DNA from: a phage
Length of the DNA stretch: 64,000 nucleotides
Direction: 5' to 3' (one strand)
NCBI GenBank assembly: GCA_019326865.1
Contig: GCA_019326865.1_4101.1
Shown piece by piece: positions 12,308 to 59,703 of this stretch (positions are counted from its first letter, which is position 1; each line of letters begins with the position of its first letter). Under the pieces are notes generated by a model. It was not told the DNA's origin and ran no database searches. It saw nothing but the letters and a program-made list of their open reading frames with translations. A program made the translations under genes and the position numbers.

Positions 12308-12981
12308 ATTACGAATATGATCAACAATCAGTCAATCAGATGGCTGATTTGTTAAGTGGTCTTAATGATATTGAAGCTGGTGAGACACATGATGCGGCTG
12401 GTGTACCATATAAAGCTAGTGGTGATATTGGTGCAATGACTGCTATTTTAACTTCATTAAATGAAGCGGGTATGGATTATGGTATTGAACCTGAACAGAC
12501 ACATCCGAAGGTTGTGTCATATAACGCACCATTTAACGAACACATGAATGGACAACAACATGTTCAGCCTGTGATGCAACGTTCACCTTCTAAACCGAAA
12601 ACCAATTGGAGTTTAGTAGAAGAAAAGGTACAAGGCACGAAATCTACTAAAGTTTATAGTATTAAGTGTAACCATAGTTCACAAATTATCATGAATAATA
12701 TTATGATGTATGAAGCAGCACTTACTTTAGTTAACCTTCTTAACGAAGGGCGAATGTTGACAGATGCTAAAGTTCTTGGTATAATTAGTTCGGGTTTGCA
12801 ATACACAAATGTAATAAGCGAAGCATTAAAAGCAGCCCATAAACGCCAACGTGTACTTAATGAATCAAAGTATGATGAAGCAAAAGATTTAGATATAATC
12901 ATTGCAGAAAAGAAAGCAGAAGCGTATAAATTAAAAGAGCGTGTATTAAACTTTCTTAAAAATGAAGGGTACATCACTTGA
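12304..12981 (+). CDS. hypothetical protein
   Basis: 225-aa ORF. Confidence 0.5.
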   Translation: MNYEYDQQSVNQMADLLSGLNDIEAGETHDAAGVPYKASGDIGAMTAILTSLNEAGMDYGIEPEQTHPKVVSYNAPFNEHMNGQQHVQPVMQRSPSKPKTNWSLVEEKVQGTKSTKVYSIKCNHSSQIIMNNIMMYEAALTLVNLLNEGRMLTDAKVLGIISSGLQYTNVISEALKAAHKRQRVLNESKYDEAKDLDIIIAEKKAEAYKLKERVLNFLKNEGYIT

Positions 12982-14729
12982 TTATAGATGAATTGAAGAA
13001 ATTCTTAAAAAGCAAAAACAAAAAAACATGGGTTAAGTTGGTAAGCAATAATGAAGTGTATTTTAAATATGTTCGTGAATTATTCCCAACTAAACCCATG
13101 AATGAAGCATTGTATCTTATAATGAACGATATGGTATGTGCACCATCTGCCCCATGTGGCTCTGAATGTAAATTTATTAATGGTTCATATGATAAGTATT
13201 GTTCTAAGCCAACAAAACCAAACAAAAATCGTGATAATGGTTTTTGTGTAGTATGCAATGAGCATTGGAAGAACGCCAAACTCAAAAATACTAAACAAAA
13301 ATGCCTTGATGCTTATGGAGTCGAATATCATTGGCAAAGAAATGATGTGAAGGACAAAATAAAAAGTACTAATATGAAACGATATGGCGTTGAGCACAAT
13401 TCGCATATCGAACATGTTCTTGAAAAAAGAAAGGAAACCTTCATTAAAAGATATGGTGTTGAATCACCTTTAGCATCTGTTGAAATTCGTGATAAGATAA
13501 AAGCAACAAACATTGAAAAATATGGTGTTGAAAATTATGGAAGTACTGATGAATGTATAGAAAAACGAAATAAAACAATGATGGATTTATATGGTGTTAA
13601 TAATGCACAACATGTAACGAAATTTTTAAATGAATCAAAGGTTACGAAAGCTAAAATTAGGTATGATAAAATTTTATCTATTATTAACCCTTCATATAAA
13701 GAACTTTTTGAATATGATGACTTGATAGATTCAACTAATGAAAGTAAACTTCCGTATTATTGTGAAATACACAAAGGGCTGTTTTATAGTAATTATAAAT
13801 ATGGTATAGTTTGTAGTGTTTGTAATCCACCCGTGTATAGTTCCATACAAAATGAAATAAAGAATTTTGTATCAACATTGACTGAATGTGACATTATTAT
13901 GAATGATCGAAGTAATGGGTATGAATATGATATATACATCCCTGAACTCCAGATAGCAATAGAAGTTAATGGAATGTATTGGCACAAAAGTGATATGGTT
14001 GATAAGTATTATCATAGGACAAAAACAATAAATTCGATTGAACGTGGAATTAGATTGATACATATATTTGAAGATGAATGGTACAGTAAACAGGAAATTA
14101 TTAAAAATAGATTAATGAACGTTTTTCAATGTTCTAGTAAGATTTATGCCAGAAAATGTATTGTTAAAAAAATTAACACAAATATTTGTTATGATTTCTT
14201 GAACACTAATCACATACAAGGATATACTAAAACTGGAATAAACTATGGTTTGTTTTATAAACAAGAACTGATTGCAGTAATGACGTTCAGTAAAAGTCGA
14301 TATGATAAAAAATTTGAATATGAGCTAATACGATATTGCTCACGTGGAACGGTTGTTGGTGGGGCTGGTAAATTATTGTCTGCATTTGAGCGTGATTACA
14401 AACCATTGTCGTTGATGAGCTACGCAGACTTGAATTGGGGTTCTGGGCAGTTATACATATCTCTTAATTTTGAAAATTTGGGATATACCGAACCCAAATA
14501 TTTTTATTATGATCCAAAAACAAAACAGCGTTTTTCTAGACAAAAATTTAGAAAACATAAATTGATTGAAATGGGCCACGACTCATCTAAAACTGAAGAA
14601 GAGATATGCTTAGGTGAAATTGGATTGTATAAAATATACGATTCTGGCAATTGCAAATTTGCTAAATATTATTACAACATAAACATTACAGGAGATATTG
14701 AAAAATGTCCAAATCGTACAAAAAACTAA
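12978..14729 (+). CDS. putative homing-endonuclease-like protein (tandem repeats + nuclease motif)
   Basis: Cys-rich N-terminus; five ~22-aa repeats with [KR]YGVE core; later DIYIPELQIAIEVNGMYWH resembling Vsr/DUF559-type endonuclease motif; 583 aa. Confidence 0.45.
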   Translation: MIIDELKKFLKSKNKKTWVKLVSNNEVYFKYVRELFPTKPMNEALYLIMNDMVCAPSAPCGSECKFINGSYDKYCSKPTKPNKNRDNGFCVVCNEHWKNAKLKNTKQKCLDAYGVEYHWQRNDVKDKIKSTNMKRYGVEHNSHIEHVLEKRKETFIKRYGVESPLASVEIRDKIKATNIEKYGVENYGSTDECIEKRNKTMMDLYGVNNAQHVTKFLNESKVTKAKIRYDKILSIINPSYKELFEYDDLIDSTNESKLPYYCEIHKGLFYSNYKYGIVCSVCNPPVYSSIQNEIKNFVSTLTECDIIMNDRSNGYEYDIYIPELQIAIEVNGMYWHKSDMVDKYYHRTKTINSIERGIRLIHIFEDEWYSKQEIIKNRLMNVFQCSSKIYARKCIVKKINTNICYDFLNTNHIQGYTKTGINYGLFYKQELIAVMTFSKSRYDKKFEYELIRYCSRGTVVGGAGKLLSAFERDYKPLSLMSYADLNWGSGQLYISLNFENLGYTEPKYFYYDPKTKQRFSRQKFRKHKLIEMGHDSSKTEEEICLGEIGLYKIYDSGNCKFAKYYYNINITGDIEKCPNRTKN

Positions 14730-17668: not shown

Positions 17669-19987
17669 ATGATTAACGTAACCAAGCGTAATGGAATGAA
17701 AGAACCGTTATCATTGGATAAGATCCATCAGATTTTATTTTTCGCTGCTGAAGGTCTAAGTGGTATTTCAGTTTCTGAAATTGAAATTCGTGCACAACTT
17801 CAGTTTTATGAAGGTATTGAAACTAGTACTATTCATGATATTCTGATTAAAGCAGCCGCAGAACTTATTTCAGAAGATACACCAAATTACCAATATGTTG
17901 CTGGTAGATTATTAAACTATAGTATTCGTAAGCAAGTATATGGGCAGTATGACCCGATTAAATATGCTGCTCATCTTCAAGAAATGGTTGATATCAAAAT
18001 ATATGATCCTGAAATTCTTGAAAAATATACTCTTCAAGAAATAGAAGAGCTTGGGCGTTATATCAAACATAAACGTGACGATAAATTTACTTATGTTGCA
18101 ATGCGACAATGGGAAGGAAAATACCTTTACAAAAACCGCGTTACTAAGAAAATTTATGAAACTCCACAAATGGCATATATGACTATTGCCGCAATCATTT
18201 TTATGGAGTATGATCGTTCCGTTCGTATGTCATATGTTAAAAAGTTTTATGATGCAGTAAGTAACTTTGACATTAGTCTTCCTACACCTATTATGGCTGG
18301 TCTACGTACAAACACACGTCAGTTTAGCTCTTGTGTAGTTCTAAATGTTGGTGACAGCTTGGATAGTATTGGTTCATCTAACCACGCCATTCTACGTTAT
18401 ATTTCACGTAAAGCTGGTCTTGGTATTAATATGGGCCGCATTCGTGCCTTGGATTCCGAGATTCGTTCAGGTGATGCAGTACATACTGGATTGATTCCGT
18501 TCATTGCAGCTACTGCTAAAACTGTTAAAAGCTGTTCACAAGGTGGTGTTCGTGGTGGAGCAGCAACTGTTCACTTCCCATTGTGGCATTTGGAATTTGA
18601 TAACTTGGTAGTTCTTAAAAACAACAAAGGAACTGAGTTTAACCGTGTACGTCAACTGGACTATTGTTTCCAAGTAAACAAAACTTTGTATCAACGTTTG
18701 GTTGATGGAAAGAATATCACGTTCTTTAGTCCTAATGAAGTTCCTGGGTTATATGATGCATTCTGCTCTGATCAAAAAGAATTTGAAAAGCTATATAAAA
18801 AATACGAATCTGACCAAAGCATCCGTAAAAAATCCGTACCTGCTGTTGAAGTATTCAGTACTTTAATGACGGAACGTGCAGAAACTGGTCGTATCTATAT
18901 TCAAAATATTGACCATACAAACACACACTCAACATTTATTGAATCAAATGCTCCTATCGAGCAATCCAACTTGTGTCAGGAAATCGCACTACCATCTGTG
19001 CCATTTGATGATATTAATACTGGTAAAGGTTTGATTAGTTTATGTACCTTGAGTGCAATCAACTGGGGTAACTTTGACCGTCCAGAAGAGATGGAAACTG
19101 CATGTGATCTTTCTGTTCGTGCTCTTGACTCACTTTTAGACTATCAAGACTATCCAGTAGTTCATGCGGATCGAGCAACAAAAATGTATCGTCCACTAGG
19201 TGTTGGTATTATTAACTTTGCCTATTTCCTTGCTAAACGTGGTTTACGTTATAATGAAGCTGCACTGGAAACAGTTAACGAATGGGCTGAAGCATGGTCT
19301 TACTATCTAATTAAATCGTCTGTACAGCTTGCTAAAGAGAAAGGTAAATGTGAAGGATTTGATAATCTAAAATATGCCAAAGGTATCCTTCCAATTGATA
19401 CTTATAAATCTGATATTGATGAATTAGTAACTAAAGAACTAAAACAAGATTGGGAATCTTTGCGTGAAGATATCAAAGAATATGGCATTCGTAACGCAAC
19501 AACCATGGCATTAATGCCAGCAGAAACAAGTGCACAAATCAGTAACAGTACTAACGGTATTGAAAAACCACGTTCTCTCGTAACTAAGAAACTATCTAAG
19601 GATGGTATTCTTAAACAAGTAGTTCCTGAAATTAATAAATTAAAAAACAAATATGATTTATTATGGGAACAAAAAGATAACATTGGTTATCTACAAATTT
19701 GTGGTGTTCTACAAAAATACATTGACCAAAGCATCAGTGTTAATACCAGTTATAACCCAGCACACTTCCCTGATGGGAAGTTGCCAATGTCGACTCTCCT
19801 AACTGAGCTTATGTATGCATATAAGGTTGGTTTGAAAAATCTTTATTATCATAATACAAATGATGGTTCAGATGAAGTAGACGTTGAAAAAGTACTGAAA
19901 GAAGCTGCAAAACCAGAATCAGGGCAGTTCGTGTTACCTACACTATCGGACTTAGATGAAGGTGATTGTGATAGTTGTAAAATCTAA
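17669..19987 (+). CDS. nrdA: ribonucleoside-diphosphate reductase alpha subunit (class Ia)
   Basis: N-terminal ATP-cone (VTKRNG...), 772 aa, C-terminal Cys pair (CDSC); followed by nrdB. Confidence 0.85.
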   Translation: MINVTKRNGMKEPLSLDKIHQILFFAAEGLSGISVSEIEIRAQLQFYEGIETSTIHDILIKAAAELISEDTPNYQYVAGRLLNYSIRKQVYGQYDPIKYAAHLQEMVDIKIYDPEILEKYTLQEIEELGRYIKHKRDDKFTYVAMRQWEGKYLYKNRVTKKIYETPQMAYMTIAAIIFMEYDRSVRMSYVKKFYDAVSNFDISLPTPIMAGLRTNTRQFSSCVVLNVGDSLDSIGSSNHAILRYISRKAGLGINMGRIRALDSEIRSGDAVHTGLIPFIAATAKTVKSCSQGGVRGGAATVHFPLWHLEFDNLVVLKNNKGTEFNRVRQLDYCFQVNKTLYQRLVDGKNITFFSPNEVPGLYDAFCSDQKEFEKLYKKYESDQSIRKKSVPAVEVFSTLMTERAETGRIYIQNIDHTNTHSTFIESNAPIEQSNLCQEIALPSVPFDDINTGKGLISLCTLSAINWGNFDRPEEMETACDLSVRALDSLLDYQDYPVVHADRATKMYRPLGVGIINFAYFLAKRGLRYNEAALETVNEWAEAWSYYLIKSSVQLAKEKGKCEGFDNLKYAKGILPIDTYKSDIDELVTKELKQDWESLREDIKEYGIRNATTMALMPAETSAQISNSTNGIEKPRSLVTKKLSKDGILKQVVPEINKLKNKYDLLWEQKDNIGYLQICGVLQKYIDQSISVNTSYNPAHFPDGKLPMSTLLTELMYAYKVGLKNLYYHNTNDGSDEVDVEKVLKEAAKPESGQFVLPTLSDLDEGDCDSCKI

Positions 19988-20020: not shown

Positions 20021-20034
20021 AACGGAGTGATATA

Positions 20035-20808
20035 ATGAAAGTTGATTATTTTAAACCAATTAATATTGGTTTCATTGAGGAATTTTGGGATGATTTGGAC
20101 ATGGATATGATTGTTCGCCATCAAAAGCTTCCAGACGATTTCATTAAGAAGCATTTTGATAAAATGAACCCTAACATGTTGGCTCGTTATCAAACTATGT
20201 CAATTGATTTCTTAAAAGAAAAGTGGGAATGGTTCGATAAGAACGTTCTGGCAACATATGTTGTCATGCCACTGGAACTCATTAAAGAAAAGTGGGATGA
20301 TTTTAAAGATAACTGTCTTGGAACAGTTGCAAAATACCAAAAAATGTCATTGGATTTTATACAAGAAAAATGGGATGACTTTGTAGAGTTTAAAGATGGT
20401 GTAATGTCAGAAATCTCTCGTTACCAAAAATTAACTCTGGATTTCATTCAAGATAAGTGGGAATATATAGATAAGAATTATATTTCTTATTATCAAACTT
20501 TAACTGTTGATTTCATCAAAGATAACTTAACAGAACTGAACATTGCTGCGGTATCTGCATTCCAAATTATTTCTGATGATGTTCGAAATCTTATGGGATT
20601 GGCTGCACCAGCAGCAACCATTACCGGAAACCAAATATTATCTCTAGACCCATGTGTGGATGGTATGGCACGATATAACGCCCATACTCCTGATAACACA
20701 ACAGTACTGACATGGAATGAATTATTACAAAAACACTTGGGTACACAGGACGGAATTCGTGATATCCATTGGTTGTCTTATAAACTAGGACATAACATCA
20801 ATACATAA
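20035..20808 (+). CDS. tandem-repeat protein
   Basis: Five to six ~27-aa repeats with core YQ-x-[ML]-[ST]-[IL]-DF-[IL]-x-[ED]-KW-[DE]; 257 aa. Confidence 0.55.
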   Translation: MKVDYFKPINIGFIEEFWDDLDMDMIVRHQKLPDDFIKKHFDKMNPNMLARYQTMSIDFLKEKWEWFDKNVLATYVVMPLELIKEKWDDFKDNCLGTVAKYQKMSLDFIQEKWDDFVEFKDGVMSEISRYQKLTLDFIQDKWEYIDKNYISYYQTLTVDFIKDNLTELNIAAVSAFQIISDDVRNLMGLAAPAATITGNQILSLDPCVDGMARYNAHTPDNTTVLTWNELLQKHLGTQDGIRDIHWLSYKLGHNINT

Positions 20809-20827
20809 TATATAAGGAAATATATAA

Positions 20828-21952
20828 ATGTCCGTTTTTAAAATTAACGAAAAATCACACTTAGAAAAAAATATGTTTTTTGATGAAAGTGTTGACATTC
20901 AACGATTTGAAAGTGTAAAATATTCAGCACTAGAGAAACTAACTGAACAACAAAAAAGTTTCTTCTGGACCCCAGGAGAAGTTGATGTATCTAAAGATAA
21001 AATTGATTTTGCCAACCTTAATGATTCAGAGAAGCACATTTTTACCTCTAACTTGAAACGTCAAATTCTTCTTGATTCTGTACAAGGTCGTGGTCCAAAC
21101 CTAATGCTACTACCATATGCATCACTACCTGAATTAGAGAACTTTATTGAGACATGGGCATTCTTTGAAGGTGCGATTCATAGTAAATCATATACTCATA
21201 TTATTCGTAACATTTACCCTAATCCATCTGAAGTGTTTGATACTATGTTGGACATTCCAGAAATCACAGATTGTGCGGCTGATGTGTCTAAGTATTATGA
21301 TGAACTGGATGAGCTAGGTACATGGTATAAAGTACTGGGTGAAGGAACTCACAATGTCAATGGTAAAACTATTGTTGTTGATATGTACGAACTTAAAAAG
21401 AAAATGTGGTTGTGTCTGAATAGTATTAACATCCTTGAGGGTGTGCGTTTTTACGCTAGTTTTGCCTGTTCGTGGGCCTACGCCGAAAACAAGCTTATGG
21501 AAGGTAATGCCAAAATTATTCGTCTAATTTGTCGTGATGAAAATTTACACTTAGCGGCAACACAAATGATTCTTCGCCTACTTAAGAAAGAAGATCTAGA
21601 CTTTGCAAAAATTGCAGAAGAGTGTTATGATGAAGTACTGGAAATGTTCATGTCTGCAATCCGTCAAGAAGAAGCTTGGGCAGATTTCCTCTTTAAAGAT
21701 GGTTCAATCATTGGACTAAATGCAGAAATCCTAAAACAATATGTTCGCTGGATTGGTTCTAAGCGTATGTCAGCACTAGGAATTAAATGTCCATATACTG
21801 TATCTAAGAGTAACCCACTACCTTGGACTGAGCATTGGGTTAGTGGTGGTTCAGTACAAGTTGCACCGCAAGAAACTGAAATAAGTTCTTACATCATTGG
21901 TGGTATTGTTAATGATATCCAAGGAGATACATTCACGCCATTCAAACTATAA
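20828..21952 (+). CDS. nrdB: ribonucleoside-diphosphate reductase beta subunit
   Basis: 374 aa, ferritin-like helices, directly downstream of nrdA; uninterrupted. Confidence 0.8.
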   Translation: MSVFKINEKSHLEKNMFFDESVDIQRFESVKYSALEKLTEQQKSFFWTPGEVDVSKDKIDFANLNDSEKHIFTSNLKRQILLDSVQGRGPNLMLLPYASLPELENFIETWAFFEGAIHSKSYTHIIRNIYPNPSEVFDTMLDIPEITDCAADVSKYYDELDELGTWYKVLGEGTHNVNGKTIVVDMYELKKKMWLCLNSINILEGVRFYASFACSWAYAENKLMEGNAKIIRLICRDENLHLAATQMILRLLKKEDLDFAKIAEECYDEVLEMFMSAIRQEEAWADFLFKDGSIIGLNAEILKQYVRWIGSKRMSALGIKCPYTVSKSNPLPWTEHWVSGGSVQVAPQETEISSYIIGGIVNDIQGDTFTPFKL

Positions 21953-56943: not shown

Positions 56944-57021
56944 GGAAATATATGTCTGAAAAACCAAAAGAACCTTTAGATCGTGATGATGATTTTTATG
57001 ACGAACGATATGGAGATGATA

Positions 57022-57273
57022 ATGAGTGAACATAGTGCGGTGCTTAAAAAGATTTTAAAGGAAATTGATGGTGAGTTTAATGTCACAGAAGAAGAATATC
57101 AGCATTGGAAGAAAGATTTCGAACAACTAACCGAGTATGATAAAGTGTTCAATATGATTGGTGTAATTAGCCAGTACTTACTTGGTGGAGGACGTGCAAG
57201 TGCTTCAATTCTGGCATCTGCAATCATCTGCACATCACGATGGTGTGATGAAAAAAGTTTGGAAGATTTCTAA
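57022..57273 (+). CDS. hypothetical protein
   Basis: Start at 57022 after GGAGA RBS; a 25-aa upstream ORF (56952..57029) with its own RBS overlaps by ATGAGTGA. Confidence 0.45.
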   Translation: MSEHSAVLKKILKEIDGEFNVTEEEYQHWKKDFEQLTEYDKVFNMIGVISQYLLGGGRASASILASAIICTSRWCDEKSLEDF

Positions 57274-57289
57274 ATAAGATGCTATAATA

Positions 57290-57298
57290 TATTATAGT
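57290..57298 (+). promoter_or_regulatory. extended -10 promoter element (TGcTATAAT)
   Basis: About 28 nt upstream of methyltransferase start. Confidence 0.4.
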
Positions 57299-57325
57299 AC
57301 CTTAACAATATAAAAAGGATTTTAT

Positions 57326-59221
57326 ATGAAACCTATCCGAGTACTATCTCTTTTTAATGGGATGAGTGTAGGATACATGGCATTAAAAGATGCTGGTATC
57401 CCTGTTGAAAAATATTATTCATCCGAAATTGACAAATTTGCTATAGCTGAATCCCAAGCTAACTTCCCCGATATCATCCAATTGGGTGATGTAACTAGAT
57501 GGAAAGAATGGGATATCGAATGGGACAAGATAGATCTACTGATGGGTGGTTTTCCATGCTTCCCAGCAGGAACTATGATAATGACAAATAAAGGTCATAA
57601 AGATATAAAAGATATAAAAATTGGTGATATGGTTCTTACACACACTGGACAGTACCAAAAAGTATTGAGTACTTGTGTAAAACAAGCACCAACTAGAATT
57701 ATATCAGGTCAGGGCCATTTACCTATTGAATGTACCGATAATCACCCATTTTATTCGAGAGTTTTGGGTAAAAAATGGAATAATGCCAAACGTCAATATG
57801 ATAGAATAGCAAGCGATGCAGAATGGGTATATGCATCAGAATTAACACCAAATCATTTACTATGTAATGTAAAATCATCGTATGTTCGTGAATCATCATT
57901 GAGAGATGAAAAATTTTGGTATTTTATGGGTAGATTTGCAGGAGATGGGTGGGTATCAAAAGTTAAACGTCAAAAAAGAAAAAATAGTTATGTATATAAA
58001 GTGTTAATGTGTTGTGCACATGATGAATTTGATGAATTGGTTGAATGTTTTGATGGTTTAAAAATGAATTATAATTATACCAAAGAACGCACTTCATATA
58101 AATTTTATATTACATCAAAAACTTTACTTGAATTCTGTGAAAAGATGGGGAAAGGTGCTTCTAATAAAATTGTTCATCCTGAATTATGGTCCGAATGTGT
58201 AGAAAATAAAAAAGCTTTTCTTGAAGGGTACATATCGGCTGACGGTCATTACTATGATGGTAAATGGCACATTACATCAACATCATCAAACATGATATTG
58301 GGTATACAGCAATTAGTCATGGACATTTATGGAAGGCATGTGAATATACATAAAGTCACACCGTCACCCACTAAGATTATTGAGGGACGTATAGTAAATC
58401 AAAAACCGTGGTACAGAATAGAATTCACTGAAAATCCACTAAAACATGAAAATGCTTTTTATGATGATGATACGTATGCTTGGGTAAACGGTGTCAAAAA
58501 AAGTATACCTACAAATGAAATAAAAGACGTATATTCATTTGAAGTTGCAGTAGATAACACATATACGGCGAACAATATTGTAGTTCATAACTGTCAAGCG
58601 TGGTCAGTTGCTGGGAAACAAGGCGGTGTGAATGACCCTCGTGGTATGTTATTCCATACAATGGTTGATATTTACCAGCACATAAAAAGTCTCAATCCAG
58701 ACTTGAAAGTACTGTTCGAGAATGTTAAAATGAAAGAAGATTTCAAGCAATACATTAATAGTGTTCTTGAGATGACACCAGTACTGATAAATTCCCAGCA
58801 TTATACGCCTCACTTCAGGCAGAGATATTACTGGTACAGTACTGATAAACTTTTTATACCACCTGCATTATCCAATGCACCTAAACTTCAAGATATTATT
58901 GAAGATGGTTGGTACACTGACAGAACCGCTTCGTACTGTATAGATGCTAACTATTTTAAGGGTGGTGATTGTAACCAGTACTTTAATAAATCAAGAAGAC
59001 AAATTGTTTTCAAAGAACCTGATATCGATAGGGATTTCCTTCTTGAACATGGTAAGCGAAATGTGGACTATCGTCATTTAACAGTACAAGAGTGTTGCAT
59101 GTTGCAAGGAATTGATGTAAACTACTTCAAAGTTAGTAGTTCAACACAAGCATACAAAATGCTTGGGAATGGATGGACTATGCCAGTTATATCACACTTA
59201 CTACGAGATATATTCTTTTGA
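57326..59221 (+). CDS. DNA (cytosine-5)-methyltransferase interrupted by an in-frame intein
   Basis: N-extein: motif I LFNGMSVG, E-x-D, GGFP; C-extein: CQAWSVAGK (completes motif IV), ENV, QRYYW, MLGNGWTMPVISHL. Exteins total about 286 aa. Confidence 0.75.
   Translation: MKPIRVLSLFNGMSVGYMALKDAGIPVEKYYSSEIDKFAIAESQANFPDIIQLGDVTRWKEWDIEWDKIDLLMGGFPCFPAGTMIMTNKGHKDIKDIKIGDMVLTHTGQYQKVLSTCVKQAPTRIISGQGHLPIECTDNHPFYSRVLGKKWNNAKRQYDRIASDAEWVYASELTPNHLLCNVKSSYVRESSLRDEKFWYFMGRFAGDGWVSKVKRQKRKNSYVYKVLMCCAHDEFDELVECFDGLKMNYNYTKERTSYKFYITSKTLLEFCEKMGKGASNKIVHPELWSECVENKKAFLEGYISADGHYYDGKWHITSTSSNMILGIQQLVMDIYGRHVNIHKVTPSPTKIIEGRIVNQKPWYRIEFTENPLKHENAFYDDDTYAWVNGVKKSIPTNEIKDVYSFEVAVDNTYTANNIVVHNCQAWSVAGKQGGVNDPRGMLFHTMVDIYQHIKSLNPDLKVLFENVKMKEDFKQYINSVLEMTPVLINSQHYTPHFRQRYYWYSTDKLFIPPALSNAPKLQDIIEDGWYTDRTASYCIDANYFKGGDCNQYFNKSRRQIVFKEPDIDRDFLLEHGKRNVDYRHLTVQECCMLQGIDVNYFKVSSSTQAYKMLGNGWTMPVISHLLRDIFF
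57557..58591 (+). mobile_element. intein with LAGLIDADG homing-endonuclease domain (345 aa)
   Basis: Starts CFPAGTMIM, block B TDNHPF, two LAGLIDADG-like motifs (FMGRFAGDGWV, FLEGYISADGHY), ends NNIVVHN before +1 Cys. Confidence 0.7.
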
Positions 59222-59703
59222 ACATAAACAAACACCAAACTTATATAAAACGTGCAGAAAGTTTCAAACGGCTGGCTGTAAAATCTGAATTAGAATTTAA
59301 TTTGTATTATCCTAATATTGGTGATGAGGTATTTTATTGCTCTCATTCAAAGAATGGAACTTTACTTAAATCGGGTAAAGGAACTATTGTTGATATGACC
59401 GCAAATTTCAGAGGTAAACTTAATGTAATGTACAAAGTACAAGATTCAAGAACTGAGTGTATTCATGAAGTGATGCATAACATACCTGCATATCCAAAAG
59501 ATTTTGTTCAGCTAATATCTCGAAGGGAGAAACCTATGTTCTATTGTGGTTACGACAAATTAACCAAACAAATTATTCCTAATACTATGGGAAAATTTAA
59601 AAGTGATGTAAAATCTGAACTAGAAAAGAAATTTGGTACATCATGGGAAACTGAAAACGAGTTTATCGAAATTCGTTTAATTGAAGTTACTATTCTTGAT
59701 TAA
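59173..59703 (+). CDS. hypothetical protein
   Basis: 176-aa ORF overlapping methyltransferase 3' end; start uncertain. Confidence 0.4.
   Translation: MDYASYITLTTRYILLNINKHQTYIKRAESFKRLAVKSELEFNLYYPNIGDEVFYCSHSKNGTLLKSGKGTIVDMTANFRGKLNVMYKVQDSRTECIHEVMHNIPAYPKDFVQLISRREKPMFYCGYDKLTKQIIPNTMGKFKSDVKSELEKKFGTSWETENEFIEIRLIEVTILD

Follow-up and report, generated by a model that had tools for sequence, protein, structure and literature searches.

A predicted LAGLIDADG intein at the catalytic Pro-Cys of a C5-cytosine methyltransferase gene in an Escherichia coli jumbo phage

How can a DNA methyltransferase be made from a gene in which 345 codons separate the two residues of the catalytic Pro-Cys dipeptide? 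The question is raised by an open reading frame (ORF) of phage contig GCA_019326865.1_4101.1 (NCBI GenBank assembly GCA_019326865.1), analysed here as a stretch of 64,000 nucleotides (nt) that we call the window. The window belongs to an Asteriusvirus, one of the E. coli jumbo phages of ~350 kb that make up the 121Q/PBECO4 group; its closest record is UE-S1, with 93.9% identity over 24 kb. The ORF (57326..59221, plus strand) starts with ATG and encodes 631 amino acids (aa). An original prediction, drawn from the letters before any database search, had recognised C5-cytosine methyltransferase (C5-MTase) motifs at both of its ends and taken the residues between them for an intein lying directly before the catalytic cysteine. 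The first point was borne out by the Pfam family DNA_methylase (PF00145), which matched the ORF in three stretches, at both ends, with an E-value of 1.3e-28. The parts of the host enzyme are as follows.

57326..57556, plus strand: N-extein, aa 1-77, motif I through the first half of motif IV (Pfam DNA_methylase stretch 4-79)
57344-57373, plus strand: methyltransferase motif I, LSLFNGMSVG, within the N-extein (DNMT3A alignment from residue 5 onward)
57545-57556, plus strand: first half of motif IV, GGFP, aa 74-77, Pro77 being the -1 residue
58592..59221, plus strand: C-extein, aa 423-631 and stop codon, beginning CQAWSVAGK
58592-58594, plus strand: Cys423, predicted +1 splicing nucleophile and motif IV catalytic cysteine; the +1 Cys is nearly invariant in the family
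58712-58732, plus strand: motif VI, ENV, in the C-extein
58814-58834, plus strand: motif VIII, RQRYYW, in the C-extein
59153-59188, plus strand: motif X, GNGW, in the C-extein

Joining the exteins in silico gives a complete C5-MTase of 286 aa. Against TIGR00675 (dcm), with a curated cut-off of 100.65 bits, the spliced protein scored 114.4 bits and passed, whereas the unspliced ORF scored 94.3 bits and failed. Motifs I, IV (Pro-Cys), VI (ENV), VIII (RxR) and X (GN) are all present, in order. Among solved structures, the joined exteins come closest to the catalytic domains of DNMT3A/3B (E ~4e-24), followed by M.HhaI (7e-17) and M.HaeIII (7.5e-16). Because GGFPCQAWS of the joined exteins aligns with GGSPCNDLS of DNMT3A, the PC catalytic motif, Cys423 is assigned as the motif IV nucleophile; it is also the residue that follows the His-Asn end of the insert, as had been proposed. 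The N-terminus of the extein, KPIRVLSLF(N/D)G, is nearly identical to that of mammalian DNMT3A/3B. Some phage records label the gene 'haeIIIM', and give no evidence for this name. We conclude that the host enzyme is an orphan, compact (DNMT3-like) C5-cytosine DNA methyltransferase of predicted activity.

Intein-free versions of the same gene are found in close relatives. Megablast with the gene matched 37 phage records. In at least 20 of the 30 records listed, among them 121Q gp91, PBECO4, G17, phAPEC6 and slurp01, the match was confined to an intein-free span of 861 bp, which is the length of both exteins joined; an insert of ~1.0 kb was present at the same point in 5 of the 37 (TH47, JNE01, A4, UE-S1 and ph0011). 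The genes of 121Q (gp91) and PBECO4 are orthologous to that of the window, in the same genomic position with the same neighbours, and their exteins are 84% (nt) and 87% (aa) identical to the window's. When the gp91 protein was aligned, the gap covered exactly aa 78-422, and 121Q reads GGFP-CQAWSVAGK uninterrupted (here and below, hyphens mark the boundaries of the insert). The 861-bp genes of 121Q, G17, PBECO4 and Ecwhy_1 have GGTTTCCCA immediately followed by TGCCAAGCC, the intein-free orthologues carry a contiguous GGFPCQAWSVAGK, and the DNA junctions bear out the excision point in ten alleles. The boundaries of the original prediction (aa 78-422, nt 57557-58591) were thus correct to the base, and both the restored host profile and the exact gap in 121Q agree with its claim that removing the insert recreates the host sequence.

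The insert starts with CFPAGTMIMT and ends with NNIVVHN, directly before CQAWSVAGK. Its parts, read as those of an intein, are listed below; residue numbers in its blocks and motifs are those of the intein.

57557..58591, plus strand: predicted intein, 345 aa, 40.0 kDa, aa 78-422 of the ORF, a Hint splicing domain interrupted by a LAGLIDADG homing-endonuclease domain
57557..57586, plus strand: block A with Cys1 (codon 57557-57559; Cys78 of the ORF), the predicted N-terminal splicing nucleophile, nearly invariant in the family
57728..57751, plus strand: block B, ECTDNHPF, with Thr60-x-x-His63; TDNHPF is residues 60-65
57914..57952, plus strand: LAGLIDADG motif 1, FWYFMGRFAGDGW (GRFAGD130G), with Asp130 as predicted catalytic acid; modelled helix 118-130
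58211..58249, plus strand: LAGLIDADG motif 2, KAFLEGYISADGH (GYISAD229G), with Asp229 as predicted catalytic acid; modelled helix 215-229
58529..58591, plus strand: blocks F and G (VYSFEVAVDNTYTA, NNIVVHN), with penultimate His344 and terminal Asn345

All the elements that the original prediction had picked out, namely the CFPAGTMIM start, TDNHPF, two LAGLIDADG-like motifs and VVHN at the end, are present. They are also conserved: in an alignment of 32 sequences (the window intein and 31 metagenomic relatives), G125, K204, G224, V330 and N345 are invariant, and C1, H63, R126, D130, G131, D229, G230, D333, Y336, H344 and the +1 Cys are conserved in at least 90%. The insert therefore carries the residues that define a class-1 intein, Cys1, the TxxH of block B and His-Asn followed by Cys+1. 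Two Pfam families matched it above their cut-offs, Hint_2 with 31.8 bits (cut-off 28.4) and LAGLIDADG_3 with 28-31 bits (cut-off 22.5), and weaker matches were obtained with Intein_splicing, Hom_end_hint, Hint and Hom_end. The AlphaFold2 model of the 345 aa has a mean predicted local distance difference test (pLDDT) of 95 and a predicted template modelling score (pTM) of 0.91. Its best Foldseek matches in the PDB are the TliVMA intein (7qsu, E 3.4e-18, template modelling (TM) score 0.72), PI-SceI, PI-PfuI and PI-TkoII, and the modelled core also matches I-DmoI (E ~1e-7, TM(target) 0.6-0.65). The Hint_2 score, together with the likeness of the model to solved inteins, argues for a Hint fold, and the order of secondary-structure elements in the model, together with the I-DmoI matches, points to the pseudo-dimeric alpha-beta-beta-alpha-beta-beta-alpha LAGLIDADG fold. 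Profile searches with the excised insert and with the joined exteins, and alignment to contiguous phage enzymes (121Q gp91 and others), were the comparisons suggested with the original prediction, and each of them came out in its favour. We consider it highly probable that the insert is a canonical class-1 intein with a two-motif LAGLIDADG homing endonuclease, for which splicing and cleavage are predicted from sequence and model.

An insert of this kind might also stay in the protein, as a Hint-plus-nuclease domain of a methylase-nuclease fusion, or be intron-like and removed at the RNA level. There is a precedent in phage methylases, where endonuclease domains without intein features have been described (a second LAGLIDADG domain, the ShiLan/HNH insert; PMC9957025, PMC11855218). 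In the present gene, however, the bounds are exactly Cys1 and His-Asn-Cys+1, removal recreates the orthologue sequence free of any scar, the Hint fold is complete in the model, and the insert is in frame with no stop codons. An Rfam scan of nt 57000-59500 at E<=1 matched no family, and hence no group I or group II intron model. All the equivalent inserts that were found are inteins, with the arrangement C1...HN-C+1; homologues with a similar insert that is not an intein, which would have spoken against the original prediction, did not turn up among them. Both non-splicing readings are extremely improbable.

For an insert that is an intein, we propose the following course of events. The gene would give a 73.3-kDa precursor, with the intein between Pro77 and the motif IV catalytic cysteine. 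Cys78 (intein Cys1) would attack the carbonyl of Pro77 in an N-S acyl shift, Cys423 (+1) would take over the N-extein by trans-thioesterification, and cyclisation of Asn422 would release the 40-kDa intein. A final S-N shift would yield the ligated enzyme of 33 kDa, with its GGFPCQAWSVAGK motif restored and with the junction peptide IDLLMGGFPCQAWSVAGK. As the catalytic cysteine of the precursor lies 345 residues away from the rest of motif IV, the established chemistry of C5-MTases leads us to infer that the precursor should be inactive, and that methylation should need splicing. In a cell infected by related phages at the same time, the free intein would serve as a site-specific endonuclease, its target being the GGFP-CQAW coding site of alleles that lack an intein, 121Q gp91 for instance. 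Repair would copy the intein along with ~180 nt of the adjacent C-extein, as judged from the population patterns described below.

The same insertion site turned out to be widely occupied. Searching with the intein retrieved 47 metagenomic proteins, many of which combine PF00145 with intein domains; the junctions read in this subset mostly have the form ...SP-CF(P/V)AGT...VVHN-C(Q/T)xxS. Among IMG/VR viral contigs, an alignment-based query recovered more than 338 stretches encoding relatives of the intein; with the single intein protein as query, no relative was found in IMG/VR. In the best 80 of these loci, C1 and HN-C+1 were present in 80/80 and the insertion site was the same in 76/80, with Pro at -1 in 66 and Asp in 10 (SPD-C-type enzymes); ENV followed within 110 aa downstream in 70/80, and three clear exceptions sat in other host proteins. 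A profile search of 1.84 billion cluster representatives yielded 7,555 matches at E<=1e-30. The best 146 new representatives at 50% identity comprised 122 of the P-C...HN-C type and 5 of the D-C...HN-C type, i.e. 127/146 at the same site. We conclude that related inteins occupy the P-C or D-C site in no fewer than 125 protein clusters, and that the viral contigs with them number in the hundreds.

Cultured phages with a related intein at this site are Mannheimia 587AP2, Propionibacterium B22, Lactobacillus Nyseid, Pseudomonas Lana, Erwinia pEa_SNUABM_5 and EBPR siphovirus 2. The intein is also found in the Dmt protein of the P1-like phages P1 isolate OP279344, RCS47 and Ro157c2YLVW. In P1 isolate OP279344 (locus L093, 2501-3523) and RCS47 (L096), it is a 341-aa LAGLIDADG intein in the bifunctional Dmt, with the junctions VLVGGTP-CFTAGH...AVVHN-CQAFSIAG; the Dmt of reference P1 (AF234172/NC_005856) and that of P7 were checked and are without intein. 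In Mannheimia phage vB_MhS_587AP2 (L094, 1264-3100), an intein-bearing C5-MTase (GGTP-C...AVVHN-CQS) has a frame that stops 20 codons past the intein. In the record, two coding sequences (CDSs) overlap, 'hypothetical protein' and 'cytosine-specific DNA methyltransferase', and the gene of an HNH homing endonuclease comes next; this copy may be frameshifted, decaying, or affected by a sequencing error.

A minority of close relatives lie in other contexts, loci L023, L026 and L056 and protein P0033 among them. Three cluster representatives have the junction ENV-CGA(F/L)S, and several close relatives sit at ...C(S/A)W-C..., after a CxxC-rich segment (ECFYCPIA.GC.WC). Other hosts are the NrdD of Lactococcus phages and the thymidylate synthase of Aeromonas phages PS1/PS2. 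These contexts point to movement of the lineage among genes in which a Cys can serve as the +1 residue.

Several intein-bearing and intein-free alleles being available within Asteriusvirus, selection and exchange could be compared between them. The ratio of nonsynonymous to synonymous substitution rates (dN/dS) of the intein, endonuclease domain included, was 0.08-0.29 in pairwise comparisons (TH47 versus JNE01, 0.08; A4 versus TH47, 0.10; window versus A4, TH47 and JNE01, 0.25-0.29). For the exteins it was 0.04-0.13, and 0.04-0.11 among the intein-bearing alleles. The low extein values in intein-bearing genomes mean that the methyltransferase is still under selection, and support productive splicing indirectly. 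Base composition was considered as a sign of recent foreign origin of the intein, and was dropped: the G+C contents (intein 32.3%, exteins 37.2%, window 33.1%) differ too little to argue for it.

Next to the intein, the exteins carry the following block.

58628..58774, plus strand: extein haplotype block tied to the presence of the intein, a probable co-conversion tract (allele comparison)

Over the first ~180 nt of the C-extein, six intein-bearing alleles are 80-100% identical to each other and 76-80% identical to four intein-free alleles, 121Q gp91 and PBECO4 having the other haplotype there; farther downstream, at extein nt 412-660, identity between window and 121Q is 93-94%. At 17 sites, no nucleotide is common to the 6 intein-bearing and the 4 intein-free alleles. 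All but one of these fixed differences lie at +37 to +183 nt (16 sites), the last one is at -20, and none falls in the other ~650 nt of the extein. A crude estimate of such clustering by chance is (204/861)^17, ~2e-11. Confinement of the fixed differences to -20..+183 nt is the pattern expected from co-conversion during endonuclease-driven homing, and the linked haplotype is probably a co-conversion tract. From these population patterns, the intein is very probably an active homing element.

The intein has itself been subject to exchange. The exteins of the window and UE-S1 are 98.7% identical in nt (11/861 differ, with one amino-acid change), and those of UE-S1 and ph0011 are 98-99% identical to the window's. 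The inteins (window 57557-58591; UE-S1, L001, 1732-2751; ph0011, L006), in contrast, show near-identity at their ends only, in the first ~60 and last ~25 residues. In the core, to which the endonuclease belongs, identity falls to 36%, with dS >1, and the LAGLIDADG motifs are intact in both versions. With near-identical exteins around it, the core looks replaced by recombination within the Hint domain. Decay stages of the same-site intein were also seen, L098 (Logan contig SRR22973663, 4053-5708) being one locus. In metagenomic orthologue P0004, whose exteins are 66% identical to those of the window, a 264-aa intein at the same site lacks both LAGLIDADG motifs; mini-inteins of ~140 aa without endonuclease domain occur in other methyltransferases (P0042, P0043 and P0046).

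Against the reading of the insert as a splicing, homing intein, several points have to be weighed. A PDB sequence search with the intein matched solved inteins weakly, at E ~1e-3 only, so that the intein assignment rests on profiles, motifs and predicted fold. The AlphaFold2 model of the precursor has a pTM of 0.57, with pLDDT <50 at residues 75-81 and 424-439, that is, at both junctions; given this low confidence, the precursor model says nothing on active-site geometry or precursor activity. The extein haplotype could reflect shared ancestry of the intein-bearing alleles, or co-adaptation of extein and intein, instead of co-conversion. Finally, the native -1 residue is Pro77. The original prediction had the site and the elements of the intein right, but missed this unusual residue. 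Proline at -1 reportedly blocks or strongly impairs splicing of tested inteins, an engineered Ssp DnaX being the exception (PMC6486613), and splicing efficiency can therefore not be assumed.

The Pro at -1 opens the way to another explanation, in which the intein is real but splices poorly or not at all, so that the phage would in effect have a methyltransferase gene, inactivated and dispensable, which the homing endonuclease goes on spreading. Orphan phage methylases are indeed often dispensable and patchily distributed (PMC9957025), and a broken relative exists in Mannheimia phage 587AP2. Set against this are the purifying selection on the exteins of intein-bearing alleles, which is strong, and the splicing residues, which are all intact here and family-wide. 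Moreover, Pro at -1 is the rule in the lineage and native to it, as the viral loci and cluster representatives above show, which argues for adaptation to Pro and not for an accident. On balance, poor splicing is unlikely, and we keep to a splicing intein. Should inteins of the P-C site splice well, protein engineers would find in them Pro-tolerant inteins of natural origin.

The position of the intein at the catalytic residue also invites a regulatory reading, in which splicing is a conditional switch (redox, for instance through a Cys1-Cys+1 disulfide, temperature or DNA binding) that times methylation of the phage DNA. Disulfide traps are a known means of conditional-splicing control in other inteins. 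Cys1 and Cys+1 flank the junction here, a precursor that has not spliced should lack activity, and other inteins are documented to splice conditionally (background in PMC8616854, Zn effects). The sequence, however, does not require a switch, and most close relatives do without the intein; the sporadic distribution and the forms with decayed endonuclease or reduced to mini-inteins fit the life cycle of a selfish element better. We regard such a switch as very unlikely. A broader proposal would be a large undescribed lineage of C5-MTase Pro-Cys inteins that splice efficiently at Pro(-1), with methylation conditional on a post-translational step in which the catalytic thiol of the enzyme itself takes part, and with a possible timing or redox switch for self-methylation in the course of infection; taken as a whole, it seems improbable. 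The preferred reading thus remains a canonical intein with a homing endonuclease.

Apart from the intein, two signals upstream of the gene were noted.

57316..57319, plus strand: Shine-Dalgarno-like AGGA, 6 nt 5' of the ATG at 57326 (direct sequence reading)
57259..57288, plus strand: promoter-like site TTGGAA-18-TATAAT with TG, upstream of the gene (consensus scan)

Shuffled sequence gave at least as many promoter-like sites in the consensus scan as the region itself, and the terminator scan was uninformative as well.

Compared to 121Q, the window is collinear, at 88-92% identity, with only three large insertions, one of which is the intein. The second, of 1,728 bp (12975-14702), lies between the homologues of gp26 and gp27 and holds a 583-aa ORF (12978..14729, plus strand). 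With matches to PHROG 3339 'homing endonuclease' (E 4e-134), PHROG 559 (HNH) and Pfam DUF7487, this ORF probably represents a homing endonuclease gene of the free-standing type. The third, of 783 bp (20021-20803), lies exactly between the homologues of nrdA (17669..19987) and nrdB (20828..21952) and holds a 257-aa ORF (20035..20808, plus strand). This ORF had no match in a Pfam search, and its PHROG matches are only to families with no assigned function (phrog_3532). Its position recalls that of mobE, between nrdA and nrdB of T4, and by this analogy it may be an unrecognised mobile endonuclease.

The intein is also a probable cause of annotation errors in database copies: methylases bear the name 'anaerobic ribonucleoside reductase' or 'helicase', and some genes are annotated as two separate CDSs. 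In RefSeq copies of mycobacteriophage records, the intein-bearing methylase goes by 'anaerobic ribonucleoside reductase large subunit', and 'DNA helicase' is its name in some GenBank records (record pairs NC_031262 versus KU865302 for Brocalys gp61, and NC_011287 versus FJ174692 for Pacc40 gp60). The window intein matches phrog_26446, 'anaerobic ribonucleoside reductase large subunit', with an E-value of 4e-35; the name was probably transferred because the intein is shared. None of the GenBank annotations inspected (121Q-group, P1-like and other cultured phages) mentions an intein; in the P1-like phages, Dmt is the only name given.

How does this element compare with known systems? In the open-access literature (subscription journals and InBase were outside the search), we found no description of an intein in a C5-MTase, and only N4/N6 methylase inteins; elsewhere the terms met in texts on other subjects, in reference lists or in the use of inteins as affinity tags. 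The mycobacteriophage inteins DNMT-1 and DNMT-2 sit in N6_N4_Mtase DNA methylases (Kelley et al. 2016, PMC5050341), and inteins of an actinophage methylase family are likewise in N4/N6 enzymes (Gosselin et al. 2023, PMC9957025; PMC11855218). The window intein is like these in that it bears LAGLIDADG motifs, has an orphan phage methyltransferase as host, is sporadic, and carries signs of transfer and recombination. It is homologous to the intein of Pacc40 gp60 (27% identity, E 2e-23). The junction of the latter, however, is ...QMHV-C...VVKN-CPLQFD in an N4/N6 enzyme, whereas that of the window is the motif IV Pro-Cys of a C5-MTase (PF00145), with the +1 residue as predicted catalytic nucleophile. 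By sequence, then, the window intein is related to the DNMT-1/2 inteins of Kelley et al., but is another insertion-site allele in another enzyme class. The inteins of the P1-like Dmt, Lana, Nyseid, B22, pEa_SNUABM_5 and 587AP2 are 24-31% identical to it and occupy the same motif IV point, Pro-Cys or Asp-Cys, but their hosts belong to other methyltransferase subfamilies and phage groups. Of the solved inteins, TliVMA (7qsu/7qss), PI-SceI (1vde, 1lws) and PI-PfuI (1dq3) have the same predicted fold (Foldseek E 3e-18 to 1e-12, TM <=0.72) and share the class-1 residues C1, TxxH, HN and C+1; they are only 10-20% identical, their hosts are V-ATPase, ribonucleotide reductase and polymerases, and PI-SceI is larger than the 345 aa found here. 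On the host side, the joined exteins align over motifs I-X with M.HhaI, M.HaeIII and DNMT3A/B, none of which is interrupted in its solved form; at 286 aa the extein protein is short, and DNMT3A/B gives it a better score than M.HhaI does.

Within Asteriusvirus, intein-bearing, intein-free and endonuclease-swapped alleles occur in near-identical backgrounds, which makes this locus a tractable system for homing and co-conversion in a jumbo phage. Compared to the systems above, there is nothing unconventional in the mechanism, and the element is common in databases; its host site, on the other hand, has apparently not been described before. We see the finding as useful more than surprising; with it, the catalytic Pro-Cys of C5-cytosine methyltransferases joins the known host sites of inteins.

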